Shown: positions 457 through 16,084, counted from the first letter of the stretch. The stretch is 64,000 nucleotides of DNA from an uncultured Lentisphaerota bacterium (GCA_900321255.1 ONVK01000030.1:848-64847); one strand, 5' to 3'. Made by a program: numbers and translations. The notes: generated by a model not told the origin, from the letters alone.

Positions 457-503
457 GTTTTGATCCTTTTTGTGGTTTGGTTGTGTACGGGGAAACCCAT
501 GTC

Positions 504-2147
504 TCAGGCCTTTGCCTTGTCTCCGCCGAAGCGGTCGGCGTCCTTGATGGACGGCGCGGTCTCGGAGAACTCGAAGTCCTTGCCGGGGAGGATGGCGTTC
601 AGGACAATGCCCATGAGCGCTCCGACGGCGAGCCCGGAGAGCGATATCTTGAGCGACCCTACGGTGAACGCGATCGCACCCGCCTTCGAGAACGAGATGC
701 CGAGCGTGAGGACGAGGATGAGGGCGGCGATGAGCATGTTGCGGCTCTTTCCGAGGTCTACCTGGCTCTCGACGAGGTTCCTCACGCCCACGGCGGAGAT
801 CATCCCGTAGAGGATGAACGAGACGCCGCCGATCGTCGCGCCGGGGATCGTGCCGATGAAGGCCGAGAACTTCGGGCAGAACGATACGAGGATCGCGAGG
901 CAGGCGGCGATGCGGATGACGCGGGGATCGTAGACCTTCGAGAGCGAGAGGACGCCAGTGTTCTCGCCGTACGTAGTGTTGGCGGGAGCGCCGAAGAGCG
1001 AGGCAAGGCAGGTTGCGAGGCCGTCGCCCAGCATCGTGCGGTGGAGGCCCGGGTTCTCGAAGAAGTTGCGCTTCACGGTCGAGGAGATCGCCGAGACGTC
1101 GCCGACGTGCTCCATGATCGTCGCGAACGCAAGCGGGAAGACGATAAGAATCGCGCTCGTGATCCTGCCCCAGTCCGGGCTCGAGAGGATCGGGAACACC
1201 GTGTTCCCCATCTTGACGGGGAGGCCGATCCACGCTGCGGAGGCAACGCCGGAATAGTCGATCGACTGGCTGAGGCCGAGCTTGCCGAGGATTACCGCGG
1301 CAATGTATGAGAATATGACGCCCATGAGGATCGGGATGATCCTGAACATGCCGCGGGCGAATATCGAGAACCCTATCACGGTCGCTATCGCGACGAGGGC
1401 GACGGGCCAGTCTGTCGTGCAGCTGTTGATCGCGACGGGAGCGAGTACGAGGCCGATGCCGATGATGATCGGACCCGTCACGACGGGCGGGAAGAACTTC
1501 ATCACGGTCTTGACGCCGCAGGCCTTGACGAACCCGGCTACCACAAAGTAGAGGAGCGACGACGACGCGACGCCGAGACAGGCGTACTGGAGCATCTTCG
1601 TCTTGTCGCAGTCCTCGAAGCCGGCCGCGCCTGCCATCCCGGCGAGCGCAAAGTATCCGGCGAGGTAGGCGAACGACGAGCCGAGGAACGCCGGGACGAT
1701 GCGCTTCGTGAGGAGATGGAAGAGGAGCGTGCCGAGGCCCGCCCAGAGAAGCGTTGCGCTCGGGGAGAGGCCGGTGAGGATCGGCACGAGGATCGTCGCG
1801 CCGAACATCGCGAACATGTGCTGAACGCCGAGCACCGCCATCTTCGGGATGCCGAGCGTGCGGGCGTCGTAGACCGCCTCGCCGGCCCTGTACTTGTCGC
1901 GCAGACGGGCGATGGCATGCGCAAGCGCCGCCGATTCGTCGGGCGTGACGACGCCGTCTTCGGCAATCGAGACCAGGAGCTTTTCGAAAAGCGCGAGGTC
2001 GTTGTCCTTCGCCGCAAACGGATGGACGAGGCCTATGAGCGCCTTCGTCTCGTCTATGTCGGCCTTTCCGTCCGCGAACGTGAACTTCTCCGCAGCCGTA
2101 AGGAGCTGCGAAATCATCCAGGAACTGTCATTCTGTCGTGTAGCCAT
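504..2147 (-). CDS. uraA: NCS2-family uracil permease (UraA/PyrP type) with an extra ~85-aa N-terminal module
   Basis: From ORF 504..2246. Start moved to ATG 2147 (MATRQ..., preceded by AAGGAAA) because the upstream 33 codons overlap apt. UraA hallmarks are present: QHMFAMFGATILVP, IMEHVGD, NTTYGENTGV. The N-terminal extension carries DGKADIDE...EDGVVTPDES. Confidence 0.85.
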   Translation of the reverse strand: MATRQNDSSWMISQLLTAAEKFTFADGKADIDETKALIGLVHPFAAKDNDLALFEKLLVSIAEDGVVTPDESAALAHAIARLRDKYRAGEAVYDARTLGIPKMAVLGVQHMFAMFGATILVPILTGLSPSATLLWAGLGTLLFHLLTKRIVPAFLGSSFAYLAGYFALAGMAGAAGFEDCDKTKMLQYACLGVASSSLLYFVVAGFVKACGVKTVMKFFPPVVTGPIIIGIGLVLAPVAINSCTTDWPVALVAIATVIGFSIFARGMFRIIPILMGVIFSYIAAVILGKLGLSQSIDYSGVASAAWIGLPVKMGNTVFPILSSPDWGRITSAILIVFPLAFATIMEHVGDVSAISSTVKRNFFENPGLHRTMLGDGLATCLASLFGAPANTTYGENTGVLSLSKVYDPRVIRIAACLAILVSFCPKFSAFIGTIPGATIGGVSFILYGMISAVGVRNLVESQVDLGKSRNMLIAALILVLTLGISFSKAGAIAFTVGSLKISLSGLAVGALMGIVLNAILPGKDFEFSETAPSIKDADRFGGDKAKA

Positions 2148-2178
2148 TGTCGTTTCCTTAGTTAGTTTCGTTGGCAAG

Positions 2179-2949
2179 TCATTTTCCGGGGTACTTGAGG
2201 AGAGTGGCGACGTCGTAGCCCTTGAGAAGCCCGGCCCTCGCGCCAAAGCCCTCGAGCTCGATCGGGAAGATCATCTTGACGACCGTGCCTCCGAGACGCT
2301 CGACAAGCCGCGCCGCGGCGGCAGCCGTGCCGCCCGTCGCGAGCAGGTCGTCTACGATCACGGCCTTCTCCCCGCGGATCACGGCGTCGGCGTGCATGTG
2401 CAGCGTCGCCTTCCCGTATTCGAGGTCGTAGTCCTCCGAGATCGTGCGGCGCGGAAGCTTCCCGGGCTTGCGGATCGGCACAAACGCCTTTCCGAAGCGC
2501 GCGGCGATGGCCGCGCCGAAGATGAAGCCGCGGGATTCCGGCGCCGCGACAAGGTCGAAGCTGACGCCCTCCAGCGCCTCGGCGATCTCGGACAGCGCGA
2601 GGTTGAAGCCCTCGCCGGACTCGAGTATCCCCGTCACGTCGCGGAAAAGCACCCCCGGCTTCGGGAAGTCGGGTATCTCGCGGACGTAGTCGGCGAGACG
2701 CGGACGGCCCGAGAGGAGCTTGTCCATCAGACGCGCGATCTGGAACGACTCCTCGTCCGTCACGACCCCGTCCTGCCTGACGCGCTGCAGGAGCGCTTCG
2801 AGCTCGCAGGCCCCGGGCTCGCCCTTCAGGACGAACGGCCGGATCGTCCTCAGTATCACGGAAGTCTCGCCGAGCGTCACGCGCCCGTCGTACATCACCG
2901 CCGTCCGCAGCGAATCGAGGATCTTGAGCAGTCTGTAGTCGCCGACCAT
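2179..2949 (-). CDS. apt: adenine phosphoribosyltransferase with an extra ~80-aa N-terminal module
   Basis: Apt motifs IPDFPKPGVLFRDVTGI, APESRGFIFGAAIA and VIVDDLLATGGTA (PRPP loop). The N-terminus carries DGRVTLGE...QDGVVTDEES. An internal Met (MDKLLSGRPRLADYVREIPDF) would give a canonical-length Apt, so use of the long form is not proven. Confidence 0.85.
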   Translation of the reverse strand: MVGDYRLLKILDSLRTAVMYDGRVTLGETSVILRTIRPFVLKGEPGACELEALLQRVRQDGVVTDEESFQIARLMDKLLSGRPRLADYVREIPDFPKPGVLFRDVTGILESGEGFNLALSEIAEALEGVSFDLVAAPESRGFIFGAAIAARFGKAFVPIRKPGKLPRRTISEDYDLEYGKATLHMHADAVIRGEKAVIVDDLLATGGTAAAAARLVERLGGTVVKMIFPIELEGFGARAGLLKGYDVATLLKYPGK

Positions 2950-2959
2950 CCCATCCTCC

Positions 2960-4636
2960 CTACATCATTGCGTACTTGGCGATGAAAAGAGCCGTCAGGA
3001 TGTACATGATCCAGTGGATGCGGCTGAACTTGCCGGCAAGCGCGTTTATGACCGTGTACGAGATGACGCCGAACATGATGCCCTCCGAGATCGAATAGGT
3101 GAACGGCATCGCCACGATCGTGAGGAAGGCCGGAACCGCCTCTCCCGCGTCGCGCCAGTCGATGTCGGCGCAGGACGATAGCATCAGATAGCCGACGATG
3201 ATGAGCGCCGGAGCCGTCGCAAAGCCCGGGACCGCGAGGAAGATCGGAGCGAAGAGTATCGCGAGCGCGAAGAGCGCGGCGGAAGTGACTGCGGTGAGGC
3301 CCGTCTTGCCGCCGGCCGCAACGCCGGACGCAGACTCGACATATGTCGTCGTCGTGGAAGTGCCGAAGACGGCTCCCACAGATGTCGCGATGGCGTCGGC
3401 GCAGAGCGCCCCCGAAATGCGCGGGAGCTTGCCCTCCTTCGTGAGGAAGCCACCCTTCATCGAGACGCCGATGAGCGTGCCGAGCGTGTCGAAGAGGTCC
3501 ACGAAGAAGAACGCGAACATCACGACGAAGAAGTCGAGCGACTTGGCGAGCGCCCAGCCGGAACCGACGACCTCGCCCTTCACGGTGTGCGTCCAGTGCT
3601 CGGGCGAGAAGAGCGCGCCGATGGTCGAGCCGAACTCCCTGAACGCGCCGGCGATGTCGCTGACCGCGAAGCTCGGATAGGTCGAGAAGAACTTCGCCTC
3701 GGCGTTCGGCACGTAGAGCCCCGTCGCCTCGGCGACCATGCCGAGGACCCAAGTCGCGAAGATGCCGAGCAGAATGGCGCCCTTGAACCCCTTCACGAGC
3801 ATGAAGCCCGTCAGGACCGTGCCGACGAGCGCGAGAATCGCCGTCACGCCCTGCGTATGGAAACTCCCGGCATCCCTGAAGCTGACGAGCGAAACGAGCG
3901 TCGCGTCGCTGTTCACGATCACCTTCGCCGTCTGCAGCGCGATAAAGCATATGAAAAGGCCTATTCCGGCCGCCACCGCGCGCTTGAGCGTGATCGGTAT
4001 CGAGTTGAATATGCTTTCCCGAACGGGCGTCAGCGAAAGCGCGAGGAATACAAGGCCCTCCACGAACACCGCGAGAAGAGCAAACTGCCAGCTGTAGCCC
4101 ATGCCGAGCACGACGCCGAACGTGAGGAACGCGTTGAGTCCCATGCCCGGAGCGAGGACGAACGGATAGTTCGACATGAACGCCATGAGGAGCGTTCCGA
4201 CGACAGCCGCCACGGCCGTCGCCATGAAGACGCCGCCTCGCGGAATGCCGGCGACGGACAGGATGTTGGGGTTGACGGCGAGGATGTACGCCATCGTCAT
4301 GAACGTCGTGATGCCGGCCGCGACCTCGACCTTGACCGTCGTCCTGTTTCTCTTGAGCTTGAAGACCCTGCCGAGGAAGGTCGTCTCGGGTTCTTCGCTC
4401 TCGGCCTCGCGCGTAAGCCACTTGAGGTGGGCGCCGATGCGCACCGACTCCTCTGGCGTCACGACGCCGTCTTCAAGGACGTCCTCGAGCGCCTTCACGA
4501 ACTCGGCCATCTCCGCGCTCTTCTCGGCGCGCTCCTTGGCGTAGGCGAGGAGGATTACCGCCTCGGCGCGGTCTACCTTGCCGTCTTCGAGAATCGTCTT
4601 CTCGAGTTTGCGTATCGATTCCTTGATGTCGTTCAT
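2960..4636 (-). CDS. NCS2 AzgA/PurP-type adenine/guanine/hypoxanthine permease with an extra ~95-aa N-terminal module
   Basis: AzgA-family motifs AAGITTFMTMAYILAVNPNIL and TSTTTTYVESASGV, plus many TM helices. The N-terminus carries EDGKVDRAE...EDGVVTPEES. There is no alternative start codon between the module and the transporter core. Confidence 0.85.
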   Translation of the reverse strand: MNDIKESIRKLEKTILEDGKVDRAEAVILLAYAKERAEKSAEMAEFVKALEDVLEDGVVTPEESVRIGAHLKWLTREAESEEPETTFLGRVFKLKRNRTTVKVEVAAGITTFMTMAYILAVNPNILSVAGIPRGGVFMATAVAAVVGTLLMAFMSNYPFVLAPGMGLNAFLTFGVVLGMGYSWQFALLAVFVEGLVFLALSLTPVRESIFNSIPITLKRAVAAGIGLFICFIALQTAKVIVNSDATLVSLVSFRDAGSFHTQGVTAILALVGTVLTGFMLVKGFKGAILLGIFATWVLGMVAEATGLYVPNAEAKFFSTYPSFAVSDIAGAFREFGSTIGALFSPEHWTHTVKGEVVGSGWALAKSLDFFVVMFAFFFVDLFDTLGTLIGVSMKGGFLTKEGKLPRISGALCADAIATSVGAVFGTSTTTTYVESASGVAAGGKTGLTAVTSAALFALAILFAPIFLAVPGFATAPALIIVGYLMLSSCADIDWRDAGEAVPAFLTIVAMPFTYSISEGIMFGVISYTVINALAGKFSRIHWIMYILTALFIAKYAMM

Positions 4637-4665
4637 TTCCTGTCCTTTCGATCCGGCGGCAGACG

Positions 4666-4959
4666 CTAGATGATGTTGAGTATGTCGGAAAAGCCCGTTA
4701 TGTCGAACACTTCCTTGACGGAGGGCTGGACGCCTGCGATCTGGAGCGTTCCGCCCTTCGCCATCATCGTCTTGTGGGCGGTGAGCATGAGCCTAAGCCC
4801 CGCCGAGCTCATGTACGGCACATCCGCAAGATCGATGACGACTTTCGTCGCGTCGCCGAACTTGAGCCCTGCCTCGAGTTCCGGCGCGGTTACGGTATCA
4901 ACGCGTCCGCTGACGGAAATGGTCAGCGTGCTTCCCTCTGTGTTAGTTTTTATCTCCAT
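4666..4959 (-). CDS. STAS-domain anti-sigma-factor antagonist (SpoIIAA/RsbV-like)
   Basis: 97 aa. LTISVSGRVDTVTAPELE...DLADVPYMSSAGLRLML contains the conserved phosphorylatable Ser context (SSAGL). It overlaps the upstream phosphatase/kinase gene by 17 nt. Confidence 0.85.
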   Translation of the reverse strand: MEIKTNTEGSTLTISVSGRVDTVTAPELEAGLKFGDATKVVIDLADVPYMSSAGLRLMLTAHKTMMAKGGTLQIAGVQPSVKEVFDITGFSDILNII

Positions 4960-6976
4960 ATTCTTTTCCCATTGTAAGTATGTTCCTGTCGTTGTTCCGC
5001 CTGTAGGTGACAGGCGACATCGTCTTCTTGACGATCAAGATTCCAAGCCCGCCGACCTCGCGGTCATCGGCGCAGAGCGTCGTGTCGGGGTCGCGGTGCG
5101 CAAGCGGATCGAACGGCTTGCCGTTGTCCGTTATGACGAGGCGCACGCCGTCCGGATGGCGGGTTCGCTCCACCGTAAGCGTCCAGTCCGTCGCGCCAGA
5201 ATAGCGCACGATGTTCGCGAATATCTCGTCCGCCGCGACCATCATGATGTTCGAGCAGTCGTCCGGCACGCCCTCAAGCGCCTTCGCGAGGTCGGCGGAC
5301 GCCTTCGAGAGGTCTTCCATCGTCGGCCTGTACTCGCCGGTGAACGTCGCGGGCTCGCCGCGGTAGCGCATGACGAGCTGCGTGCAGTCGTCCGCCTGCT
5401 CCGCGCCGGCGGCATGGCGGCGAACGTCCTCTATCACGGCCGACAGAAGTTCGCCGCGCCTCCCGGAGCAGCCTGACACGGTCTTGAGGAGCTGGTCGTC
5501 TCCGTATAGCTCTCCAGCCGCGTTGTGCTGCTCGACGATCCCGTCGGTGTAGAGGTATATCGCGTCGCCCGGCTCAAGCTGCAGCTCCTGCACGCGGTAG
5601 CGCACGCCCGCCATCGCGCCGAGAACGAGCGAGGGCCTGGACCTGAGGTATTCGACTTTTCCGCCGAGTCTGACGATCGGAGGATTGTGCCCTGCGTTCA
5701 CATACGACACGTGTCCCGTGCGGATGTTCAGCTCGCCGGCCCAGGCAGTCACGAAAGTGTTGGAGGTATTCCCCTCGCAAAGGGCATCGTTCGCCTCCTC
5801 GATGACCTGTTCGATCGGTTTCCCCGTCTGCGCGGCGCTCTTTATCTGCGCCTTCGCCCTCATCATGAACATCGCGGCCGGGACGCCCTTCCCGCTCACG
5901 TCCGCAACGAGGAACAGCACGCGGTCAGGCCCGGTGAAGTAGAAGTCGTAGAAGTCTCCGCCGACTTCCCTCGCCGTGTCCATCGACGCCCAGATGTCGA
6001 AACTCGTCTCGTCGGGGAACGGGGGAAACACGTTGGGGATCGCCGCCAGCTGTATGTCCGTCGCCATCTTGAGCTCCTTCGCGGTCTGGAGCTTGATCTG
6101 GTTGCGGACGAAGGATGAGATCACGAATCCGACGAGAAGCGCGACGAACACGAGCGCCGCGCCGTTCAACACGGCGGTCGCGCCTACAAGGACGTCGCGC
6201 TGCACAGCTGCGGAGTCCTTGGGGATCATGATGTACGTCGGAAAGCCCTCGATTTCCTTGCGCTTCCAGTAGAAAGAGCTGTCGGGATCCTCCCAGTGCG
6301 CACCCTCGCGGTTCGGCTCCTCGTAGTCGGAGAGAATTAGCCCGGACATCGTAGTCACCACTATTCCGCCATTCCCGCCGACGCGCCAGTTGCGGAAGAG
6401 GTCCATGAGCGAGGAGCGCGACAGGCCGCGGAGCGACTCGCCGTCGCAGCCGATTTCCACGAAGCCGCCTGTCGACGGCATCCAGACCCCGATGAACTTG
6501 CGCCACGCGCCGTTCGCGGTGTTCGAGCGGTACGGCTGGCAGTATTCGGTGTCCGGTCCGGTGACGAGGCACATCATGTCCTCGGCCTGGCCGCCCGCCG
6601 TCTTGAAGTTGAAGGCCGGCCGGTCGGCGGAGGCGAGGTAGTCGGTCACCGACGAGGCAACGATGTCTCCATTCGTGTCGGCGACGCTGATCTCCGTGAC
6701 GTGAAGCTCCCTGGCGAGCGCCTGAAGCGACGCAGTGTCCACGGGATAGCCGTCCTCCTCTATCCGCTCGCGAACAGCCATGCACTGCAGGACAAGCCTT
6801 TCCTCTACGCAGTCCGACATCTCGTCCTCGACGTTCTCGAACGTGCGGTCGATCAGCTTGTACGCGTCGCGCTCCGAGAGCCGCGAGTGGAGGAACCACG
6901 TGAACGCCATCGACAGCAGGAACGCCGCGAAGACGCTCAGCACAAGCTTAAGGTTGAGGCTGCGGCGCTGCGTCAT
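4943..6976 (-). CDS. membrane sensor: periplasmic Cache-like domain + PP2C/SpoIIE phosphatase + C-terminal RsbW/SpoIIAB-like kinase (HATPase) domain
   Basis: N-terminal TM, a periplasmic domain and a second TM. SpoIIE motifs EVGGDFYDF, LVADVSGKGVPAAMFM, TDGIVE. C-terminal HATPase motifs ADEIFANIVRYS, VRLVITDNGKPFDP, VGGLGILIVKK. Confidence 0.85.
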   Translation of the reverse strand: MTQRRSLNLKLVLSVFAAFLLSMAFTWFLHSRLSERDAYKLIDRTFENVEDEMSDCVEERLVLQCMAVRERIEEDGYPVDTASLQALARELHVTEISVADTNGDIVASSVTDYLASADRPAFNFKTAGGQAEDMMCLVTGPDTEYCQPYRSNTANGAWRKFIGVWMPSTGGFVEIGCDGESLRGLSRSSLMDLFRNWRVGGNGGIVVTTMSGLILSDYEEPNREGAHWEDPDSSFYWKRKEIEGFPTYIMIPKDSAAVQRDVLVGATAVLNGAALVFVALLVGFVISSFVRNQIKLQTAKELKMATDIQLAAIPNVFPPFPDETSFDIWASMDTAREVGGDFYDFYFTGPDRVLFLVADVSGKGVPAAMFMMRAKAQIKSAAQTGKPIEQVIEEANDALCEGNTSNTFVTAWAGELNIRTGHVSYVNAGHNPPIVRLGGKVEYLRSRPSLVLGAMAGVRYRVQELQLEPGDAIYLYTDGIVEQHNAAGELYGDDQLLKTVSGCSGRRGELLSAVIEDVRRHAAGAEQADDCTQLVMRYRGEPATFTGEYRPTMEDLSKASADLAKALEGVPDDCSNIMMVAADEIFANIVRYSGATDWTLTVERTRHPDGVRLVITDNGKPFDPLAHRDPDTTLCADDREVGGLGILIVKKTMSPVTYRRNNDRNILTMGKEYGDKN

Positions 6977-7686
6977 TTCGCCCCTCCTTCCGCTATGACG
7001 GCATTGGCCGCCGCAAGCACGTCGGGGCGACGCTTGTCAACCGCGACCCCGTAGAACTCGCGCGTCTGCAGAGGCGAGACAGCGAGCTTCCCTCCGGACG
7101 CCTCGGCAAGTGTCGTCAGCTGTACGCCGTCGAAGAGCACCGCGTCGACCTCGTCCCTCCTGAGCGCAGCGATGGCGTCCTGGATGCGGATATAGCGCTT
7201 GGGGTCGCATCCGTGCAGGCAGAGGTAGACGTCGTGAGCAGAATCGGACTCGATGCCGATGCGGATGGCGTTGAGCTGCGACATGCGGGGCTTCTTTCCG
7301 TCCGTCCTGTACAGGAAGCGCGCACCGCCCTCCCCATAGGGTTCGGAGAAGTCGATGTCGCGGCGCCGCGCCTCGGTCATCGTGATGGTCGCGATGGAGA
7401 AATCGGCGGTGCCGGCCTTGAGACGCGGCAGGATCTCGATGAAATCGACGCCTTCCATGACCATCTTGCGGCCCATCTTCGCGGCGATCTTCCGCGCGAA
7501 CTCGACGTCCGTACCGACGATTTCGCCGGCCTCGTTCCTGTAGCAGCACGGCGGCTCGGTCGGGTTCGCGAGAAAGAGAAGCGGACGCGACATGTCGGTG
7601 ACGCGCGGATCGACCGTTTCCCGCCTGTCCTTGTCGGAACAGCCGGCGAACACGGCGAGCGCGAGCAGCATGCATAGTCGTTTCAT
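6973..7686 (-). CDS. lipoprotein, family-3 solute-binding protein (amino-acid-binding type)
   Basis: Lipobox LAVFAGC. SBP_bac_3-like IVGTDVEFARKIAAKMG...DFSIATITMTEARR..DFSEPY. It has 4-nt overlaps with both neighbours. Confidence 0.8.
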   Translation of the reverse strand: MKRLCMLLALAVFAGCSDKDRRETVDPRVTDMSRPLLFLANPTEPPCCYRNEAGEIVGTDVEFARKIAAKMGRKMVMEGVDFIEILPRLKAGTADFSIATITMTEARRRDIDFSEPYGEGGARFLYRTDGKKPRMSQLNAIRIGIESDSAHDVYLCLHGCDPKRYIRIQDAIAALRRDEVDAVLFDGVQLTTLAEASGGKLAVSPLQTREFYGVAVDKRRPDVLAAANAVIAEGGAK

Positions 7687-9380
7687 AGCTTGAACATGTT
7701 CCTGTTGAACCCTGTTGTCGTCATGTTTCGCCGCGCGGGGATCGCCACCATCAGGTTCGCGACGAGATACGAGCGCAGCGACGAAGCCGTCGAGTCGGCG
7801 TCGGTTATGTCAAAGAGCTTCCCGTCGTCGCGGATCACCACCGTGATGCCGTTCGACCAGTCGACCGATATCTCCGCATGCGTCCGCCTGCCGGCGTTTC
7901 TGTCCTTTACGAGCATCAGCGTCTCCTCGATGAGCAGCGAGACGAGCCCGGACTTGCGGTCGTCCATCCCCCTGCGCGTGCCGAGGAACCTGCCGACTGT
8001 GGCGGACGCGTCGCAGATCGCCTTCGTGTCAAGCACCAGGTCGTAGACGCGCGAAGCGCGAATCCGCGCACGGTCGAGGAAAAGCGGGAACGCCCTGCGG
8101 CCACACCTGAAGGCGACATACACCGCGACGAGGCCGATGGCGGCGTAGGGACTTGCCGCGAGCGCGGACCACACGCCGCACTCGCCGAAGAGCCAGCCGG
8201 CCGCCGGAGCGAGCGCGACCGGCAGCACGAAAGTCGCGAGCGCCGTCACGCCGACGGCAAGCCCCTCTCGGACGCGGAAGGTGTAGTAGGAGTTGAGCAG
8301 CATCACAAACGCCGTGCCGACGAGCCCGAGCGAGACGATGCGCACCGCGGTGCGGGCGGCCTCGGCGAGCGACGGATCGGTGATCCCGACCATGGACACG
8401 ACGAGCTGCGGGAACGCGACGGCGAGAAGCGTAAGCACCAGCCCCTCGGCCGCGGAGACGCGCGCCGCGAGGCCCATTATGCGGCGCGTGAGGCGGTCGT
8501 TGCCCTCGCCGATGTAGACGCTCGCGAGCGGCTGCGCCGCGGTCGCGACCCCGTCGAAGGCCTCGCTCACCCCGAGTATCACGAGAACCGCGGCAAGCAC
8601 CGGAAGCCTGCCTTCGCCGAAACGCGAAATGATGTAGAGGTTGAGCATCAGCGTGAGACCCGCCTGGCAGAGGCGTATGCTCGCGTCGCCGAGCGCGCAC
8701 GCGCAGATTCGCCCGGTGTCCGCAAGCGAGAAATGCCGCACGAACGCCATCGAGTTCTCCTCTCGGCGAAGGTGCATAAGGAGGACGCACAGCGCCATGA
8801 GGTGCCCGACCGTCGTGCCGATGGCGCACCCTGTGTAGCCGTAGCGCATCGTGAGCGGAATGGATAGCGCGCAGTTGCCGAGAAGCTGCGCGATGTAGGC
8901 GCCGGCGCATACACGCCCGTCGCCGTCGGCATAGCCCATGGACGAAAAGTAGAACGACAGCGGCTCGAGAACCGCGCACGGGAGAAACCACACCCAGTAC
9001 TCTCGAGCGCCGGCCAGCACCGCGCCGGATACGCCGAACGCCGCGGTCGCGGCGTTGCGCGAAAGCGCGAGCGCGCCCATGAGGAGAAGCCCGAACCCGA
9101 GCGCAGACCAGAGGCCCTGGGTCAGCAGTTCGCTCGCGCGCCTGCGGTCGAAGCGCCCCATCTCCATCGCGTAGAGGACGCTCGTCCCTGTTCCGACCAG
9201 CAGCGCGACGAAAGACACGACGTTGAACATCGGCTGCATCAGGTTTATGACGGAAAGCCCTTCCTCGCCTATGATCTGCCCGCAGATGACGCTGTCGGAA
9301 AGCCCCATCAGGTACTCCGCCGCCATCGCGAAAGTCGCGGTGGGAAGGAATCTGGCGAACTTGTTGGCGGCAAAGGTCAT
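7683..9380 (-). CDS. MATE-family transporter fused to a C-terminal degenerate RsbW-like (HATPase_c-type) domain
   Basis: About 440 aa with ~12 TM helices and a MATE-like N-terminus (AAEYLMGLSDSVICGQIIGEEGLSVINL). The C-terminal ~120 aa (LVSLLIEETLMLVK...GITVVIRDDGKLFDIT) parallels the kinase domain of the 4943..6976 product, but the G-box is replaced (ASSLRSYLVAN). Confidence 0.7.
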   Translation of the reverse strand: MTFAANKFARFLPTATFAMAAEYLMGLSDSVICGQIIGEEGLSVINLMQPMFNVVSFVALLVGTGTSVLYAMEMGRFDRRRASELLTQGLWSALGFGLLLMGALALSRNAATAAFGVSGAVLAGAREYWVWFLPCAVLEPLSFYFSSMGYADGDGRVCAGAYIAQLLGNCALSIPLTMRYGYTGCAIGTTVGHLMALCVLLMHLRREENSMAFVRHFSLADTGRICACALGDASIRLCQAGLTLMLNLYIISRFGEGRLPVLAAVLVILGVSEAFDGVATAAQPLASVYIGEGNDRLTRRIMGLAARVSAAEGLVLTLLAVAFPQLVVSMVGITDPSLAEAARTAVRIVSLGLVGTAFVMLLNSYYTFRVREGLAVGVTALATFVLPVALAPAAGWLFGECGVWSALAASPYAAIGLVAVYVAFRCGRRAFPLFLDRARIRASRVYDLVLDTKAICDASATVGRFLGTRRGMDDRKSGLVSLLIEETLMLVKDRNAGRRTHAEISVDWSNGITVVIRDDGKLFDITDADSTASSLRSYLVANLMVAIPARRNMTTTGFNRNMFKL

Positions 9381-9395
9381 AGTTTCCTGTTTGGG

Positions 9396-9404
9396 ATTAT
9401 ACCA
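9396..9404 (-). promoter_or_regulatory. extended -10 box TGGTATAAT upstream of the MATE gene
   Basis: The minus strand reads TTTGGTATAAT, followed by 15 nt containing AGGAAA and then ATG 9380. Confidence 0.45.
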
Positions 9405-9432
9405 AATAGCGCCTCTTTAGTGTGGAATTTCT

Positions 9433-11091
9433 TCATCCGTTGTATCGTACGATCAGCTGCGTGCAGTCGTCCGCCTGCTCCACAAGCCCGCCGTACGCGA
9501 CGACAGCGTGGAAGACGGCGCGCAGCAGAGGCGACGAACCGCCTTCGACAGCCGCGACGCCGTTCGAGAGCATCGACTCAAGCGAGAAGCGCAGCCTCTC
9601 CTCGCCGAACAGGTCTCCGCGCTCGTCGGGTTGCTCTGTGATTCCGTCCGTGTAGAGGTAGATCGCCTCGCCGGGACGGAGCGTCAGCTCGTGCGACTTG
9701 TACGTGATCCCCTCCATCGCGCCGAGCATCAGGCCCGACCTGTCGCGGACGAACTCCGGCGCGGAGCCGGACGAAGTCCGGATCGGCGGGTTGTGCCCCG
9801 CGTTCACGAAGGTGACGACGCCAGTCGTCAGGTTCAGCTCGCCAAGCCACGCCGTGACGAACATGTTCGCGTCGTTGTCGCGGCTCAGCGCGTCGTTCGC
9901 CCTCTCGGCGACCTCGGCGAGCGGAAGCCCCGTCTGGGCGATCCCCTTGATCGTGGTCTTCGCGCGCATCATGTACAGCGCCGCGGGAACGCCCTTCCCG
10001 CTGACGTCCGCAATCATGAACATGAACCTGTCGGAGGTGATGAAGTAGAAGTCGTAGAAGTCGCCGCCTATGTCGCGCGCCGCCTGCATCGTCGCCACGA
10101 TGTCCATCCTCGTCTCGTCGGGGAAAGGCGGGAAGACGCGCGGAATCGCGCTCTCCTGGATGTTCGTGGCCATCTCCATCTCGTGCTTGCGCTGGGCGGC
10201 GAGCTGGTCGCGCACGTAGTGCGCGATCACGAGCCCCACGAGGATCGCCGCGAGTATCAGGGCCATTCCGTTCAGGAACGCGGAGGTCGCCACAAGGACC
10301 CGCCTCTCGACGACCGCCGTCCTCTTCGGAATCACGACGTATACGGGGAAGCCCTCGAACATGCGCTTCTCCCAGTAGTTATCCTCGCCGGGGTCGCGCC
10401 ACTGCCCGCCCTCCTGCCCCGCAACTGGATGGGAGATGATCGTCCCGTTGTCGGTCGTTATGAAGATGCCACCCTCGTCTCCGCTCACGTGCCAGCCGTG
10501 CGTGAGGCCGGTGAGGGCGGAGCGCGCAAGGTTGCGGAGGGCCTTCTCCCGTGCGCCGACGAGCACAAATCCGCCTTCGGGCATCCAGACCCCGACGTAC
10601 TTGATCTTCTCGCCGCGGAGCGTGCTCGGAAGAGGCGGCTGCGCAAGCTCGAACCCTTCCGTCAGAAGCGACGCAAACTCGTGCGCCTGGCCCTCGGCCG
10701 TGTTGAAGTTCAGCGCCCCGACCTCTTCGCGTCGCGCACTGTGGGAGAGATTTCCGTCCGCATCCGCTATGCATATCTCGTCCACCCCGAGTTCGTCCGC
10801 GAGCGCGCGGAGGCGCCTGCTCGACTCGTCAGGGTCGTTCCACCACGGCTGCCCCTGCATCTCGTAGACTTTGTCGCGCACCACCATCGCCTGGCGGAAC
10901 ATGCGCGCGTCCACGCGCTCGCGTATATCCACCGCCACGTCGCTGAACACATTGTCGATGAGGTGCTTCGTGTCGCGCCATGTAAGCTGCTCGTGAAGCA
11001 TCCACGTAAGCACGAGCGAGGCGACGAACGCAAGCGCAACGGCGCCGACGAGACGCCGCGCGAGCTTGCGCTGTGCAGTTCCCATCACCAT
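9433..11091 (-). CDS. membrane sensor: periplasmic Cache-like domain + PP2C/SpoIIE phosphatase (paralogue of 4943..6976 without the kinase domain)
   Basis: DIGGDFYDF, MIADVSGKGVPAALYM, TDGITE. The periplasmic domain aligns with its paralogue (YVGVWMPEGGFVLVG vs FIGVWMPSTGGFVEIG). An alternative ATG lies at 11085. Confidence 0.85.
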   Translation of the reverse strand: MVMGTAQRKLARRLVGAVALAFVASLVLTWMLHEQLTWRDTKHLIDNVFSDVAVDIRERVDARMFRQAMVVRDKVYEMQGQPWWNDPDESSRRLRALADELGVDEICIADADGNLSHSARREEVGALNFNTAEGQAHEFASLLTEGFELAQPPLPSTLRGEKIKYVGVWMPEGGFVLVGAREKALRNLARSALTGLTHGWHVSGDEGGIFITTDNGTIISHPVAGQEGGQWRDPGEDNYWEKRMFEGFPVYVVIPKRTAVVERRVLVATSAFLNGMALILAAILVGLVIAHYVRDQLAAQRKHEMEMATNIQESAIPRVFPPFPDETRMDIVATMQAARDIGGDFYDFYFITSDRFMFMIADVSGKGVPAALYMMRAKTTIKGIAQTGLPLAEVAERANDALSRDNDANMFVTAWLGELNLTTGVVTFVNAGHNPPIRTSSGSAPEFVRDRSGLMLGAMEGITYKSHELTLRPGEAIYLYTDGITEQPDERGDLFGEERLRFSLESMLSNGVAAVEGGSSPLLRAVFHAVVAYGGLVEQADDCTQLIVRYNG

Positions 11092-11831
11092 CTGCGCCGC
11101 CTCCTCTTGCCGGCCGTTATCACCATGTCGAGCGCCTTCTTGAGCCGCGTGTCGCCCTTGCGCACGGCTATGCCGAAGTTCTCGCGCGTCTCGAGGCGGG
11201 ACGCGGCGAATTCGCCGTTCGAGTTCTCCGCGTCTATGCGAACCGCGCAGCTGTCGAAGAACATCGCGTCGAGCCGCTTCGCCTTGAGGTCATCCATCGC
11301 ATCGACGTAGGAGCCGTAGCGGACGGGATCGAGCCCATGCGAGGTCAGGTAGAAGTCGTAGGTCGACGCATCCATCGTGCCGATGCGCATCTTCTCGGCG
11401 CGGATCATCGTCGGCATCTCCTCTCCCGCGCGGTAGAGGAACATCCCTCCCTCCGTCGCGTAGGGAACCGTGAAGTCCACGGTCTGCAGCCTGCCCTCAG
11501 TGATCGTTATGCCGGACGCGGCCATATCGGCCTCCCCTGCGCTTACCATGGTCAGCAGGTTCGGGAACTTCTCCTTGCGTATCTCGAGCTTGCACCCAAG
11601 CTTTGCCGCCGCCGCGCGCGCGATGTCTATTTCCAGACCGACTATCTCGCCCGTCTCGTCGTCGCAGTAGGAATACGGGCGGGTGTCAGTCGTGGTGACG
11701 AGCAAAAGCACGTTGTTCGTGCGGGCGGGAGGAGGAGGCGGCGCGTCAGCGTCGCGCCCGCTGCATCCGGCGGAAAGCATCGCGGCGAGAACGAGCGCCG
11801 CAGCCGACAGTGTATAGACTCCTCCCCTCAT
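11085..11831 (-). CDS. lipoprotein, family-3 solute-binding protein (second copy)
   Basis: Lipobox MLSAGCSG. IVGLEIDIARAAAAKLG...DMAASGITITEGR..DFTVPY. The stop overlaps the start of the downstream PP2C sensor. Confidence 0.8.
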   Translation of the reverse strand: MRGGVYTLSAAALVLAAMLSAGCSGRDADAPPPPPARTNNVLLLVTTTDTRPYSYCDDETGEIVGLEIDIARAAAAKLGCKLEIRKEKFPNLLTMVSAGEADMAASGITITEGRLQTVDFTVPYATEGGMFLYRAGEEMPTMIRAEKMRIGTMDASTYDFYLTSHGLDPVRYGSYVDAMDDLKAKRLDAMFFDSCAVRIDAENSNGEFAASRLETRENFGIAVRKGDTRLKKALDMVITAGKRRRRRW

Positions 11832-11853
11832 CTACCAGTATCGCCTGAAGCGG

Positions 11854-12474
11854 TCAGAGGGTGCCGAAAATGCGGTCGCCGGCATCGCCAAGACCAGGAA
11901 CGATGTAGAAATGGCTGTTCAGGCGCTCGTCTTTGGCCGCGGTGAACACAGGGACGTCGGGATGCTCCTTCTCGACCTTCGCAATGCCCTCCGGCGCGGC
12001 AATGAGGTTGAGGAAGACGATTCGCCTGTAGCCGAGCTTCTTGAGCTGGGCGAACGCATCGCACGCGCTCCCGCCCGTCGCGAGCATCGGGTCGATCACG
12101 ATCGCGAGCTCGTCGTTCTTCGCCGGCGGAACTTTCGCGTAGTACGGAATCGGCTCGGCCGTCGCCTCGTTGCGCTGCATGCCGAGAACGCCGACCTTCG
12201 CGTACGGAAGGACGTGCAGCATCGCGTCGAGCATGCCCATTCCGGCGCGGAGAATCGGGACGATCACAATGGAGTCCTCGATCTTCACGCCCGTCGTCTT
12301 CGCGACAGGGGTCGTGACCGGGATCTCGACGGTCCGCAGGTCCTTGAGACTCTCGATTGCAAGAAATTCCGTTATCTCGTTTACGAGCTCGCGAAACTGC
12401 TTCGGCTTTGTGTTGATGTCGCGCATAAGCGTGACGCGGTGCTTTACAAGTGGATGGTTCAGGACTGTATGCAT
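11854..12474 (-). CDS. upp: uracil phosphoribosyltransferase
   Basis: 206 aa. ILRAGMGM, VIDPMLATGGS, YIVPGLGDAGDRIFGT. Confidence 0.92.
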   Translation of the reverse strand: MHTVLNHPLVKHRVTLMRDINTKPKQFRELVNEITEFLAIESLKDLRTVEIPVTTPVAKTTGVKIEDSIVIVPILRAGMGMLDAMLHVLPYAKVGVLGMQRNEATAEPIPYYAKVPPAKNDELAIVIDPMLATGGSACDAFAQLKKLGYRRIVFLNLIAAPEGIAKVEKEHPDVPVFTAAKDERLNSHFYIVPGLGDAGDRIFGTL

Positions 12475-12480
12475 AAGAGA

Positions 12481-12606
12481 GTTTAAAGTTTAAAGTTCAA
12501 AGTTCAAAGTTTAAAGTTGGAAGTTGGGAGTTGAGAATTGAAAGTTGAGAGTTGAGAGTTTGATGTTTGGTCTTTAAAGTTTAGGTTTGAAGTTCGAAGA
12601 TTTTGA
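12481..12606. repeat. tandem heptanucleotide array, about 18 units (GTTTAAA/GTTCAAA/GTTGAGA...)
   Basis: Phase-7 periodicity was read directly from 12481 to 12606. The array lies between the pilD stop and the upp start, and is AT-rich in an otherwise GC-rich window. Confidence 0.9.
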
Positions 12607-12619
12607 GGCTTACGGTGCT

Positions 12620-12627
12620 ATTATACA
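12620..12627 (-). promoter_or_regulatory. possible -10 box (TGTATAAT) for upp, upstream of the heptamer array
   Basis: The minus strand reads ATGTATAAT directly after the pilD stop codon. If used, the heptamer array would be the ~140-nt upp leader. Confidence 0.3.
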
Positions 12628-13536
12628 TTAAGGAACGACGAGACGCAAATACCAATCCACAAGCTGCGGACCGAAGAACATCCACGAAAGACACCCTATG
12701 CAGATGTACGGCCCATACGGTATTGGCGTAAAACCACCAAGTTTTGTCTTGGAAAGAAGAATTAACGACACACCGACGACGCTACCGACGACCGAGGAGA
12801 GGATGAGAGTCACAAGAACCGCAATCGGTCCGAAGAGCGCACCGACCGCCCCCATAAGGAATACGTCGCCCATTCCCATGGCCTCGCGCTTGAACGCCTT
12901 CGAGCCCACCCAGCGCACAAACCAGAGGAGTCCGAAGCCAAAGACAAGGCCACTTATGGAGTACGCGAGCGGGAAGTACATCCTCAAGTCGGAGAAGTCG
13001 AACGCGAAGTTTCGAGTGCTTGCGCTGACGAACGTCCAGAACAGGACGCCGAGCACCATTCCTCCGACCGTCGTGAAGTCGGGGAGAAGCTGGTGGTCGA
13101 AGTCGATAAACGAACCGGCAATCATCAACGATATCCAAATCCACCAGACAAGCAGGATGATGATTCCAGCAATGTAGGTGACCTGCCCGAACGGAGCGAC
13201 GACCGGCTTCCCGTCGCCGCCGAACAGATGCAAGAACACCGCAAGGAACAGCAGACCGCCCAGGAGCTCCACGAAGATATACCGCGGCGAAATCGGCGCA
13301 CGGCAGTTGGCGCACTTGCCCCTGAGCGCAAGCCACGAGAGGATCGGAATGTTCTGGTACCACCTGATCGGCGAGTTGCACTTCGGGCAGTGCGACGGCG
13401 GGGAGACGATCGACTCGCCCCTTGGCGCGCGCCAGATGACGACGTTGAGGAACGACGCAATGCACGCCCCCAGCCAAAAGCTGAAAAACGCCAATATCGG
13501 CATAAGTTCTTTTAGGATGTTGGCGTGCTGATTCAT
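12628..13536 (-). CDS. pilD: prepilin peptidase / N-methyltransferase (peptidase A24)
   Basis: CPKCNSPIRWYQNIPILSW...GKCANC zinc-finger-like motif, GMGDVFLMGAVG active-site region, polytopic membrane protein. Confidence 0.88.
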   Translation of the reverse strand: MNQHANILKELMPILAFFSFWLGACIASFLNVVIWRAPRGESIVSPPSHCPKCNSPIRWYQNIPILSWLALRGKCANCRAPISPRYIFVELLGGLLFLAVFLHLFGGDGKPVVAPFGQVTYIAGIIILLVWWIWISLMIAGSFIDFDHQLLPDFTTVGGMVLGVLFWTFVSASTRNFAFDFSDLRMYFPLAYSISGLVFGFGLLWFVRWVGSKAFKREAMGMGDVFLMGAVGALFGPIAVLVTLILSSVVGSVVGVSLILLSKTKLGGFTPIPYGPYICIGCLSWMFFGPQLVDWYLRLVVP

Positions 13537-13537
13537 G

Positions 13538-14524
13538 TCACTCGCTCTTCAGTTCGCGGCCCATCATCGACTCGACGGCCTTCCGGGCGTCGAAGTCCTC
13601 GTAGCAAAGCGCGTAGACGAGATCGCAGATGGGCATCTCGACGCCAAGCTTCGCGGCAAGGTCGTGGACAACCTTCGAGTTCCAGACGCCTTCGGCCACC
13701 ATCTGCATCGAGCCGAGAATGTCCTTTATCTTCTCGCCCTTCCCAAGCCGCTCGCCGACGGAATGGTTTCGCGAGTGGACCGATGTGCAAGTGACGATGA
13801 GATCGCCTATCCCGGCGAGCCCGGAAAGCGTCTCGGGCTTACCGCCGTAGGCGAGCACGAAGCGCTTCATCTCAGCGAGACCGCGCGTGATGAGCGCGGC
13901 CCTCGTGTTGTCGCCGAAGCCCATGCCGTCGGAGCAGCCGACGGCAATCGCGATGACGTTCTTGACGGCGCCGCCTATCTCTACGCCGACCGGATCGGGC
14001 GAAGTGTAGACGCGGAACTTGGGGCCAGACCAGACGCGCTGGACCTTCTTCGCCTTCTCCTCGTCCTCGCACGCGGCGACGATTGTAGTCGGAATCCCTC
14101 GGCTCACCTCCTCGGCGTGAGTCGGCCCTGCGAGCGCGACTACGCTCTTTATCCCGAGTATCTCCTTCGCGAGCTCCGTCATGCGCTTGTTTGACGATTC
14201 GCAAAGCCCCTTCGTGAGCGAGACGACGAGCTGGTCGTCGGTTATGAGACCCCTGAAGCCCTCCATCACCGACGCAAAGAACTTGCTCGGCGGCGCGAGA
14301 ACGACGATTTCGGCGCCCTTCACCGCCTCTTCGCGGTCGGAAGTAAGCTTCAGCGCGTCGGGCAGAACGACGCCCTTCAGGAACTTCTCGTTTCTCCTGG
14401 TGCGGCGCTGCTCCTCTATGTAGTCCGGGAACGCGCCCCATACCGTCACGTCATGCCCATAGCCAACGAGAAGCAGCGCATTCGCCGTTCCCCATCCACC
14501 ATCGCCAATCACCGCAATTTTCAT
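13538..14524 (-). CDS. gpsA: NAD(P)H-dependent glycerol-3-phosphate dehydrogenase
   Basis: MKIAVIGDGGWGTA..., GPTHAEEV, KNVIAIAVG, consistent with the GpsA family. Confidence 0.9.
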   Translation of the reverse strand: MKIAVIGDGGWGTANALLLVGYGHDVTVWGAFPDYIEEQRRTRRNEKFLKGVVLPDALKLTSDREEAVKGAEIVVLAPPSKFFASVMEGFRGLITDDQLVVSLTKGLCESSNKRMTELAKEILGIKSVVALAGPTHAEEVSRGIPTTIVAACEDEEKAKKVQRVWSGPKFRVYTSPDPVGVEIGGAVKNVIAIAVGCSDGMGFGDNTRAALITRGLAEMKRFVLAYGGKPETLSGLAGIGDLIVTCTSVHSRNHSVGERLGKGEKIKDILGSMQMVAEGVWNSKVVHDLAAKLGVEMPICDLVYALCYEDFDARKAVESMMGRELKSE

Positions 14525-14530
14525 GCGTAT

Positions 14531-14539
14531 ATTATACCA
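14531..14539 (-). promoter_or_regulatory. extended -10 box TGGTATAAT, 6 nt from the gpsA ATG (leaderless arrangement)
   Basis: The minus strand reads TTGGTATAAT-ATACGC-ATG. Confidence 0.5.
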
Positions 14540-14548
14540 AATTCCACC

Positions 14549-16084
14549 CTACCTGGAATCAGCCTTCTTCTCTATCCTGTCTAAATAAGCCGTCGCGAAC
14601 CTGCGTGCCCATATGATGCGCTCGTCAGCCGGGTCTCCGCCGGCGCGAAGGATCCTGTCGGCCGCTTCAACGGCCGCGGAGAATGCCTTGCGAGCCGCAG
14701 CAATGTCGCCGCGCCCGCGGTCGTAGAAAGTCCTGCCGCGGCACACAAGCAGCTCTGGATCGTCCGGGTTCCGCCCGAGGCCCTCGCTGACGACGCGAAG
14801 CGCAAGGGCCTTGTCCTTCATAGAGCTGTCGGCGATGAACCACGCGGTAGTCCAGGCGTCGATGTTGTGGGGGTCGGCCTTGACCGACGCCCAGAACCAC
14901 GGCATCATCTCGACAGATTCGGCCCCGGCGAGATGCCTGTGGATTTCCGGCGCACGGACATGTTCATTGATCCAAGCCCAGGGATCGTCGGAGAAACAGT
15001 GTTTCCCCTCGTGCTCCCCGTCGTGGTCGTCGAGATCGTCGTCATGCCCATGCTCGCATTCGTGACAGACGTGATGATCGCCTTCTCCGTGCTCGTCGTG
15101 ATTGTGCGAGCCGAGATGGTCACAGTCCACGTCGATTCCGCCGTGGTAATACGTGTCCGCCTTGTGAACAAGCGCGCGGCTGATCGTCCCGCGCGCGTCG
15201 CCGAACGCGACGGCAAGAGCGCCTTCGCCCTTCACTACCTGGGGCATCGCGTCGCCGCCGCGGAGTTGGCGCATCGCGGACGGAACGGCCAGCGCGGCGA
15301 AGGCCGCGGCGGCGAGAGCTGTTGCGCCAAGCCTCACAGGCGCCTCCTGCGGAGAACGAGCGCGGCGAGCATAGAGCAAGACGACCGAGAACACGATTCC
15401 GTCAACTGCGCCCCAGCCGTGGACGAGGCGCTGGCGCATGTCGAAGAACTCGGCGTGCGGAGCGACCGCGTAGACGGCTTTCACGACCCAGGCGAGCGCG
15501 GGATTGAGGCCTTCGGCGTATTCGGGGAGCTGCCGCCCGAAGAAGAACATGCCGACAAGAACTATTGCGGAAAGCGACAGATTCGCAGAGGCCGTCACGA
15601 GAAGCGAGCCGAGGAGCGACACGGCGACGGCAAGCGCGACGAATGCGAAATGAAGCACGATGGCCTGCGGCAGTTCCGCGGCAAATGCGCCGCCCCTGAG
15701 GAGCACGCTCGCGACGAAGAGGACATAGAAGAACGCAAGCGCCGACCACGCCGCTGCGACCGCGCCGATGTACTTGCCGACGAGAAGCCGTCCGCGCGAG
15801 ATCGGCTTTGCGAGAAGCGGGTAGATCGTGCGCGACTCGAATTCCGGCGGAAAGAGCCGCTGCCCCGCACCGAGCGCGATGAAGAGCGAGAAGCCCCAGA
15901 CGAGAAGGAGCGCCATCTCGTCGAGGTAGCGCGACGCGCCCGCGGCGCCAAAAGGCGTCGCCATCGAAAGCGGCACCATGAGCGCAAGGCCAAGCAGCAA
16001 GAGCGCGAATACATCATTGCGCCGCCACAGCTCGAGGAAAGAGAGCTTAACGAGAGAGCGCACCTGCCTGAGGAAAAGTTTCAT
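14549..16084 (-). CDS. ABC-2-type transporter permease fused to a His/Asp/Cys-rich segment and a TPR-like C-terminal domain
   Basis: The N-terminal ~240 aa has 6 TM helices (ABC-2 style) and there is an extra TM at ~aa 252-270. The segment DCDHLGSHNHDEHGEGDHHVCHECEHGHDDDLDDHDGEHEGKHC lies at aa ~313-362 (nt 14999..15148). The tail is helical and repeat-like. Confidence 0.65.
   Translation of the reverse strand: MKLFLRQVRSLVKLSFLELWRRNDVFALLLLGLALMVPLSMATPFGAAGASRYLDEMALLLVWGFSLFIALGAGQRLFPPEFESRTIYPLLAKPISRGRLLVGKYIGAVAAAWSALAFFYVLFVASVLLRGGAFAAELPQAIVLHFAFVALAVAVSLLGSLLVTASANLSLSAIVLVGMFFFGRQLPEYAEGLNPALAWVVKAVYAVAPHAEFFDMRQRLVHGWGAVDGIVFSVVLLYARRARSPQEAPVRLGATALAAAAFAALAVPSAMRQLRGGDAMPQVVKGEGALAVAFGDARGTISRALVHKADTYYHGGIDVDCDHLGSHNHDEHGEGDHHVCHECEHGHDDDLDDHDGEHEGKHCFSDDPWAWINEHVRAPEIHRHLAGAESVEMMPWFWASVKADPHNIDAWTTAWFIADSSMKDKALALRVVSEGLGRNPDDPELLVCRGRTFYDRGRGDIAAARKAFSAAVEAADRILRAGGDPADERIIWARRFATAYLDRIEKKADSR

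Follow-up and report, generated by a model that had tools for sequence, protein, structure and literature searches.

Bacterial partner switching is known mainly for the control of sigma factors, with few modules acting on other soluble targets, and we know of no MATE transporter that carries a dedicated cytoplasmic regulatory domain. Among the closest described systems are the RsbW homologues of Mycobacterium smegmatis, in which RsfB is a substrate of RsbW2 alone, a homologue that has N, G1, and G2 motifs, and RsbW1 and RsbW3 cluster with kinase-negative anti-sigma factors; such kinase-dead homologues still take part in partner switching (PMC7693655). On the transporter side, the STAS protein MlaB is bound to MlaF of the ABC transporter MlaFEDB (PMC7367683). 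The locus described here lies in a 64,000-nucleotide stretch of DNA from an uncultured Lentisphaerota bacterium (GCA_900321255.1, ONVK01000030.1:848-64847), referred to below as the window. One of its minus-strand genes encodes a 565-residue protein in which a MATE transporter core is followed by a 138-residue C-terminal tail that is homologous to RsbW and SpoIIAB, the kinases of partner-switching modules, and the same operon encodes a STAS protein.

The tail appears to be a disabled RsbW fold, and its gene is found repeatedly beside, or fused to, a gene for a STAS protein; the transporter is therefore probably switched by a partner-switching module. Stated in full, the reading that we place somewhat above even is that of a MATE transporter with a phosphotransfer-dead tail of the RsbW/SpoIIAB fold, controlled by a STAS partner-switching module. 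The parts are all of known kinds, but their combination, a pseudokinase receiver on a secondary transporter that is coupled to STAS, is new. Full-text literature searches brought up no MATE transporter described as carrying an RsbW-like domain, which agrees with a previous reading of the window made from the sequence alone (the sequence-only reading); nor are MATE or efflux mentioned in a review of stand-alone STAS proteins from 2021.

Homology of the tail to RsbW and SpoIIAB

Taken alone, the tail of the window protein matches nothing in Pfam, even at E ≤ 10, and nothing in the PDB. A BLASTP comparison with the kinase domain of the neighbouring 677-residue sensor protein yields a nonsignificant E-value of 0.89, so that the two short aligned blocks by which the sequence-only reading had drawn a parallel between these domains prove nothing by themselves. 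The parallel does hold, and is visible with profiles only. When an alignment of 70 diverse tails (A2) is compared by hhalign with one of 15 genuine HATPase_c_2 kinase domains of related loci (A3, drawn from sensor-PP2C-kinase neighbours or stand-alone RsbW-like genes), the two match with a probability of 96.2% and an E-value of 2.5e-9 over 115 columns; with an unrelated alignment as control, the probability is 0.2%. In this profile alignment, the previously noted block GITVVIRDDGKLFD is paired exactly with GVRLVITDNGKPFD, as are the two versions of the G-box, ASSLRSYLVAN in the tail and VGGLGILIVKK in the kinase. A further block, LLIEETLM/AADEIFAN, is paired as well, one residue off the version noted before.

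HATPase_c_2 is also the sole Pfam family that recurs among individual members (6 of 18 and 8 of 70), in every case below threshold, with best E-values of 2.8e-4 and 1.3e-4. The member P0171, for instance, scores 17.5 bits against PF13581, short of the gathering cut-off of 27.4 bits. Searches of PDB sequences with the A1 and A2 profiles return a chance prohibitin match alone, or nothing. In the Pfam lists precomputed for proteins of the family, the tail region is blank and the entry consists of MatE alone or is empty.

The AlphaFold2 model of the tail has a predicted local distance difference test (pLDDT) of 71 and a predicted template modelling score (pTM) of 0.67, is weak in the lid region, and runs in the order strand, two helices, two strands, lid helices, and strand. 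Its top PDB matches in Foldseek are 1tid_A, 1th8_A, 8ih8_C, and 6m37_C (probability 1.0, template modelling score (TM) ~0.6). The 14 best matches, with TM ~0.5-0.63, are chains of SpoIIAB, UsfX, another anti-sigma-F factor, and RsbW, save at ranks 8 and 12, which go to two LvrC chains (a response regulator); histidine-kinase catalytic domains occupy the ranks that follow. This Foldseek check had been suggested along with the sequence-only reading, and its outcome, with SpoIIAB, UsfX, and RsbW at the top, supports that reading. Profile alignment and structure prediction concur, and the tail is confirmed, as far as comparisons of this kind reach, as a Bergerat-type alpha/beta fold homologous to RsbW/SpoIIAB (GHKL).

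Lost and retained motifs

In GHKL proteins, Mg-triphosphate is held by the N-box asparagine, the glycines of the G2 box, and the lid. The hhalign column map indicates how each of these has changed in the tails: the Mg-binding Asn, invariant in the kinases, aligns with Leu or Met, G-G-L-G of G2 is replaced by S-S-L-R, and the ATP lid is 10 residues shorter, which appears as a 10-column gap. Two other elements are kept. The D-E of the kinase N-box aligns with E485-E486, of which E485 is invariant in the 70 tails, and G1 persists as D518-x-G520, with the Gly invariant and the Asp in at least 90% of the tails; the Glu pair and the G1 D-x-G together are conserved at the same level of at least 90%. 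Judged by this loss of motifs, the tail looks catalytically dead, that is, no longer able to transfer phosphate, as the sequence-only reading had also proposed.

That reading called the domain degenerate. The term is misleading, because the motifs that stand in for the lost ones hardly vary, and both the N-box Glu and the D-x-G of G1 are retained. The motifs FDITDxD, SSLRxYxV, and TTTGFNRN are nearly invariant among close relatives and recognisable family-wide. Within SSLRSYLV, the residues S, L, R, and V are invariant in alignments A1 and A5, while TTTGFNRNMF is invariant in close relatives, with its N and R present in at least 90% of the 70 tails. The near invariance of these replacement motifs points to a specialised pseudokinase under purifying selection rather than a decaying remnant.

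The transporter core and the reality of the fusion

Pfam MatE matches the 565-residue protein in two stretches, with an E-value of 1.5e-19 and 70.7 bits against a cut-off of 24.9. The NCBIfam MATE models cover residues 6-420 at scores below their family cut-offs (PRK09575, 84 bits, cut-off 445; TIGR00797, 79.4 bits, cut-off 147.4), which marks the core as a divergent MATE branch, and a single-sequence search finds no PDB match for it. Source records name the protein either "hypothetical protein" or "Na+-driven multidrug efflux pump". The tail starts past an Arg-rich stretch that follows the last hydrophobic segment; the C-termini of MATE proteins are cytoplasmic, as in the topology of NorM and DinF, and the tail should thus be cytoplasmic as well.

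A fused architecture of this kind could in principle be an artefact, two distinct genes, one for a MATE protein and a small one, having been joined by an assembly or sequencing fault, an objection that had been raised together with the sequence-only reading. Several tail matches in the databases are indeed short (77-235 aa). These are fragments, however: in many of them the final MATE helices are still encoded in frame, and a run of Ns at a scaffold gap interrupts one. The merge is refuted by three further observations, namely that the 90% cluster of the window protein has 136 members, the listed ones all 565 aa long, that its exact sequence occurs on 22 contigs, and that ~80 full-length relatives with 30-90% identity all have the same architecture. 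The tail was also considered as a free-standing protein and rejected as such, the short database matches being contig-end fragments or gene-call artefacts.

The family is large. A word-indexed search yields 32 close relatives of the tail, and an exhaustive search with the tail profile yields 526 clusters (50% identity) at E ≤ 1e-3, of which 359 reach E ≤ 1e-10. Nearly all full-length matches are 557-600 aa long, with the tail at residues ~430-570. Members come from Kiritimatiellae, Verrucomicrobia, and Lentisphaerae of gut and rumen, from some spirochaetes, and from Firmicutes-looking low-GC organisms.

Genomic coupling to STAS proteins

The neighbourhoods of MATE-tail genes were collected from 135 distinct loci (54 from species-representative genomes, 80 from metagenomes, and several by exact look-up), and their six-frame open reading frames (ORFs) were searched with iterated hidden Markov models for STAS, PP2C, kinase, tail, and MATE core. 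A STAS gene lies within 5 kb of the MATE-tail gene in 57 of the 135 loci and within 200 bp in 25, counts in which related loci are not independent events; another 49 loci are too short to judge the presence of STAS. The association is confined to the vicinity of the gene, with 57 STAS matches in the nearer 766 kb of flanking sequence and none in the 293 kb beyond 5 kb. All STAS neighbours keep the serine motif Y(M/I)SSAGLR.

MATE-tail and STAS genes occur in at least five arrangements: (i) MATE-tail/solute-binding protein/sensor-PP2C-kinase/STAS, as in the window, (ii) MATE-tail/STAS/NCS2, (iii) MATE-tail/STAS/stand-alone kinase, (iv) STAS(/kinase)/MATE-tail, and (v) a bare pair of the two genes, separated by 18 nt and neighboured by butyrate-pathway genes, in an organism of low GC content (40%). 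The search for kinase and phosphatase genes around this bare pair found none within ~7 kb upstream and 10 kb downstream. In many loci, a separate kinase with all motifs intact adjoins STAS. The third arrangement, in which the stand-alone kinase has intact N, G1, and G2 motifs and no PP2C intervenes, is seen in the metagenome loci L082, L085, L100, L109, L119, L124, L128, L129, L135, and L142 and in the genome locus L033, and L042 and L051 have the same genes in the order STAS, kinase, MATE-tail. Nowhere are an active kinase, STAS, and the pseudokinase set side by side more cleanly than in this triplet.

The coupling extends to single polypeptides. The STAS protein of the window is encoded by a separate gene, whereas two related, independent metagenome assemblies from different samples encode natural MatE-tail-STAS fusions (P0066 and P0180), at L056 (148-2184, ENA ERZ27247096) and L057 (2345-3472, ENA ERZ27260154). 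The two fusions are 94% identical over tail and STAS, and their in-frame linkers differ at two residues. When a fusion is modelled, its two halves match both chains of the same PDB complexes, SpoIIAB:SpoIIAA, RsbW:RsbV, and UsfX:RsfB; MlaB and SLC26 STAS domains are also among the structural matches. Upstream of the fusion gene, L057 has a gene for a condensation domain of the nonribosomal peptide synthetase (NRPS) type.

Proposed mechanism and alternatives

In the mechanism that we propose, the sensor PP2C/kinase would set the phosphorylation state of STAS, and a periplasmic solute-binding protein probably informs, and thereby feeds, the 677-residue sensor. Unphosphorylated STAS would dock on the pseudokinase tail, as RsbV does on RsbW, phosphorylated STAS would not, and docking would alter transport activity. 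Writing the signal would thus fall to the active kinase, and reading it to the dead kinase fold that the transporter carries. Going by its motifs, the tail would be the only RsbW-like candidate without catalytic motifs for an output partner of STAS. The comparisons establish the domain architecture, the homology of the tail to the RsbW fold, its pattern of lost and kept motifs, the conservation of the fusion, and the genomic link to STAS; the docking itself, its dependence on phosphorylation, the direction or sign of its effect on transport, and the transported substrate are the parts of this scheme that we infer.

Several findings weigh against this scheme. The window tail falls below every Pfam threshold, and the confidence of its model is moderate (pLDDT 71); the AlphaFold2 single-chain model of the tail-STAS fusion has a pTM of 0.67, with pLDDT below 50 in the lid (102-107, 120-131) and the linker, and favours neither the presence nor the absence of a defined interface. 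There is no nearby STAS in 29 loci that have at least 3.5 kb of downstream and at least 1 kb of upstream sequence, about one third of the informative loci. Most of these loci belong to the more divergent part of the family; the members from Akkermansia and Treponema and most low-GC members are among them, and some sit in NRPS, glycosyltransferase, or ATP-grasp contexts. STAS is therefore no obligatory cis-encoded partner throughout the family: the tail is family-wide, and a cis-encoded STAS is not. STAS is, moreover, accompanied nearly as frequently by an NCS2 permease, which could itself be the true client. Among the loci L001-L055, the permease gene comes after STAS in 20, immediately so in 18 of them, and a role of the permease as a second client of the partner-switching module is possible.

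These facts can be accommodated by supposing that the tail has the RsbW fold but binds no STAS, being instead a structural, dimerisation, or stability domain, and that STAS acts elsewhere, either on NCS2 or on the kinase/phosphatase only. Besides the 29 loci and the poorly modelled lid and linker, such a role would fit the presence of the tail family-wide whatever the context, the frequent position of NCS2 after STAS, the locus L009, in which MATE-tail adjoins NCS2 and there is no STAS, and the dimeric state of SpoIIAB and RsbW. We consider it unlikely all the same, as STAS stays beside MATE-tail even where the rest of the neighbourhood changes, including the low-GC pair, which lacks NCS2, kinase, and phosphatase alike, and both fusion assemblies join STAS to the tail and not to the permease. 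Conservation in the tail, moreover, peaks in the lid/G2 region, which in SpoIIAB (1TH8/1THN) faces the antagonist.

Information could also flow in reverse, with MATE as a trigger transporter or sensor whose tail captures or releases STAS by transport state and so titrates it away from the kinase/phosphatase or from another target; the transporter would then report on its substrate instead of being controlled. Adjacency and fusions are silent on direction, and the genomic evidence is accordingly equal for the two directions. ORF calls and a Pfam scan show no sigma factor or other output gene in the operon, so that some output is missing, and transporters that act as co-sensors have precedents such as DauA/DctA-DcuS (PMC5703999). 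Tethering of STAS in the fusions, on the other hand, is more in keeping with a regulatory domain of a transporter, of the kind known from SulP/SLC26, than with a diffusible messenger, and two dedicated periplasmic sensors, with solute-binding proteins, are already present in the operon; we regard the reverse flow as less likely still than a purely structural tail. Least probable of the three is a tail that is not inert, acting as an atypical kinase toward STAS or sensing purine nucleotides or nucleobases through the retained G1 Asp, an adenine-contacting residue, and N-box Glu to gate the transporter. This would account for the retention of the G1 D-x-G and Glu pair in at least 90% of the tails, for the bare MATE-tail/STAS pairs that keep the STAS serine with no other kinase within 7-10 kb, and for the devotion of the window locus to nucleobase salvage (uracil phosphoribosyltransferase, a second phosphoribosyltransferase, and two NCS2 permeases). 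It is at odds with the replacement of the Mg-binding Asn and of all G2 glycines, with a lid 10 residues shorter, with the many loci in which a separate motif-intact kinase adjoins STAS, and with family members outside nucleobase contexts.

Control of the transporter by a STAS partner-switching module remains the reading that we prefer for the window protein. The broader proposition, that hundreds of clusters of an unannotated MATE family are gated directly by phospho-STAS via a pseudokinase receiver of their own, is one to which we give slightly less than an even chance.

The window operon

The MATE-tail gene belongs to a series of translationally coupled minus-strand genes that extends from upp down to the second NCS2 gene (Table 1). 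Overlaps of 4 nt join the MATE gene to the solute-binding gene after it and, in turn, this solute-binding gene to the sensor gene, and the overlap of the 677-residue sensor gene with the STAS gene is 17 nt. The STAS gene is the third gene downstream of MATE-tail, as the sequence-only reading had placed it. One of the collected loci, L002, is 100% identical to the window.

Table 1. Features of the MATE-tail protein and of its operon (window coordinates; aa, amino acid residues of the product).
Feature	Coordinates	Strand	Basis or remark
MATE-plus-tail gene, 565-aa product	7683..9380	-	ORF; Pfam MatE
MATE transporter core, aa 1-427, divergent	8100..9380	-	Pfam MatE; NCBIfam alignment
Cytoplasmic tail, aa 428-565, RsbW/SpoIIAB-like predicted pseudokinase domain, 138 aa	7686..8099	-	hhalign; AlphaFold2 + Foldseek; Pfam in family
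N-box remnant LLIEETLMLVKDRN, aa 482-495	7896..7937	-	Retains the Glu pair; hydrophobic residue at the position of the Mg-binding Asn
G1-box equivalent RDDGKLFD, aa 517-524	7809..7832	-	D-x-G kept; pairs with kinase TDNGKPFD
SSLRSYLV, aa 533-540, where kinases have G2 GGLGILIV	7761..7784	-	Conserved family motif
C-terminal signature TTTGFNRNMF, aa 554-563	7692..7721	-	Last beta-strand (strand 131-137 in model)
SBP_bac_3 periplasmic solute-binding protein, 237 aa	6973..7686	-	Pfam E 9.5e-24
Membrane sensor + PP2C phosphatase + RsbW-type kinase, 677 aa	4943..6976	-	SpoIIE 174 bits, HATPase_c_2 64.6 bits
STAS protein, 97 aa, anti-sigma-antagonist type, YMSSAGL phospho-serine motif	4666..4959	-	Pfam STAS E 1.4e-17; TIGR00377 75.9 bits vs cut-off 53.45
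Second membrane sensor-PP2C phosphatase, 552 aa	9433..11091	-	SpoIIE 162.7 bits
Second SBP_bac_3 solute-binding protein, 248 aa	11085..11831	-	Pfam E 9.6e-28
Uracil phosphoribosyltransferase (upp, UPRTase)	11854..12474	-	E 5.8e-69
NCS2 nucleobase permease	2960..4636	-	Xan_ur_permease E 1e-31
Phosphoribosyltransferase (PRTase), APRT-like	2179..2949	-	
Second NCS2 permease	504..2246	-	

The 677-residue neighbour is an active-looking RsbW-type kinase by its motifs, as its kinase domain keeps the N-box DEIFAN, G1 DNG, and G2 GGLG. A second pair of genes, for a solute-binding protein and a sensor-PP2C phosphatase, lies directly upstream of the MATE gene in the window and also in L002, L006, and L027, and a Pfam scan matches no HATPase domain in its 552-residue sensor-PP2C protein. 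The MATE gene is thus flanked by two sensor phosphatases, one of which alone also has a kinase. In ~22 genome loci, an SBP_bac_3 gene stands between the MATE-tail and sensor genes.

From 504 to 12474, the window has a nucleobase-salvage theme, set by upp, the APRT-like phosphoribosyltransferase, and the two NCS2 permeases, with the signalling and MATE genes in between. This context hints at a nucleobase as the substrate of the MATE transporter or as the sensed signal. The phosphoribosyltransferase and both NCS2 permeases each have an N-terminal helical extension of ~80-100 aa, which holds two "DG-x-(V/I)-(D/T)-x-x-E-S" repeats. A stand-alone version of ~90 aa is encoded directly upstream of the MATE-tail gene in L015, L016, L038, L041, L045, L046, L049, and L050. 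Pfam searches with the extension gave weak TerB, DUF533, SHOCT-like, and GA_3 matches only, and the PDB gave no convincing match. Possibly, the extension is a further regulatory module that these genes have in common.

A different context is seen in L062 (Logan SRR30684047, 2405-7710), where two divergently oriented MATE-tail genes (597 and 569 aa), with no STAS, are clustered with genes for two GT_STM0557_N-type proteins, a 2499-residue protein, and part of an NRPS; some members of the family may export a secondary metabolite or glycoconjugate.

A scan of window positions 1-13000 for promoters and terminators gives counts no higher than the shuffle level, and an Rfam scan of 1-16000 gives no riboswitch and no other RNA family. 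Around 12000-13500, the G+C content is ~0.54 vs ~0.64, across an ORF for a 302-residue multi-pass membrane protein (12628-13536, minus strand), whose CPKC...C..C motif we take to resemble that of prepilin peptidase.

Significance and comparison with known systems

Should the tail dock STAS, it would open a direct post-translational route that leads from an extracellular signal through the solute-binding protein, the membrane PP2C/kinase, and STAS to efflux. It would also enlarge the repertoire of pseudokinases by a new domain family and give a function to a 138-residue region that current annotation ignores. If gating by phospho-STAS holds true, bacterial partner switching would have a new output class in secondary transporters. 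MATE-tail and STAS would make a compact two-gene system in which a phospho-switch on a secondary transporter can be studied cleanly.

The known systems that resemble this one differ from it in distinct respects. With RsbW and SpoIIAB (HATPase_c_2, PF13581) the tail shares its fold, a detectable homology, a size of ~135-145 aa, and a gene position near a STAS antagonist with a phospho-serine motif and a PP2C phosphatase. In contrast to these free-standing proteins, the tail is attached to the C-terminus of a 12-helix transporter, lacks the N-box Asn and G2, has a shortened lid, and scores below the Pfam threshold, and no sigma gene is seen in the operon.

On the input side, the sensor-PP2C-kinase layout of the 677-residue neighbour resembles that of Mycobacterium tuberculosis Rv1364c (sensor-PP2C-kinase-STAS), which is also the closest PDB sequence to it, and the membrane protein RsbU of Chlamydia (PMC4552016) comes from an organism that, like the source of the window, belongs to the PVC (Planctomycetes-Verrucomicrobia-Chlamydiae) group. 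Both represent the input side of the module, and neither has a transporter in the switch.

In SulP/SLC26 carriers, which have a fused STAS domain, and in MlaFEDB, STAS contacts a cytoplasmic part of the transporter and modulates it, as it would in the scheme proposed here, and in two relatives of the window protein STAS is fused to the transporter. Here, however, the transporter is of the MATE/MOP type, the proposed docking site is kinase-derived rather than a nucleotide-binding or transport domain, and the STAS protein looks phospho-regulated by a dedicated kinase/phosphatase.

The proposed division of labour is paralleled by M. tuberculosis UsfX and M. smegmatis RsbW1 and RsbW3, in which a dead fold binds the STAS antagonist and a separate RsbW-type kinase phosphorylates it (PMC7693655); chains of UsfX are, in addition, among the top structural matches of the tail. 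Those proteins are soluble and have sigma F as their other partner, whereas in the system described here a transporter carries the dead fold, and the output would presumably be transport instead of transcription.

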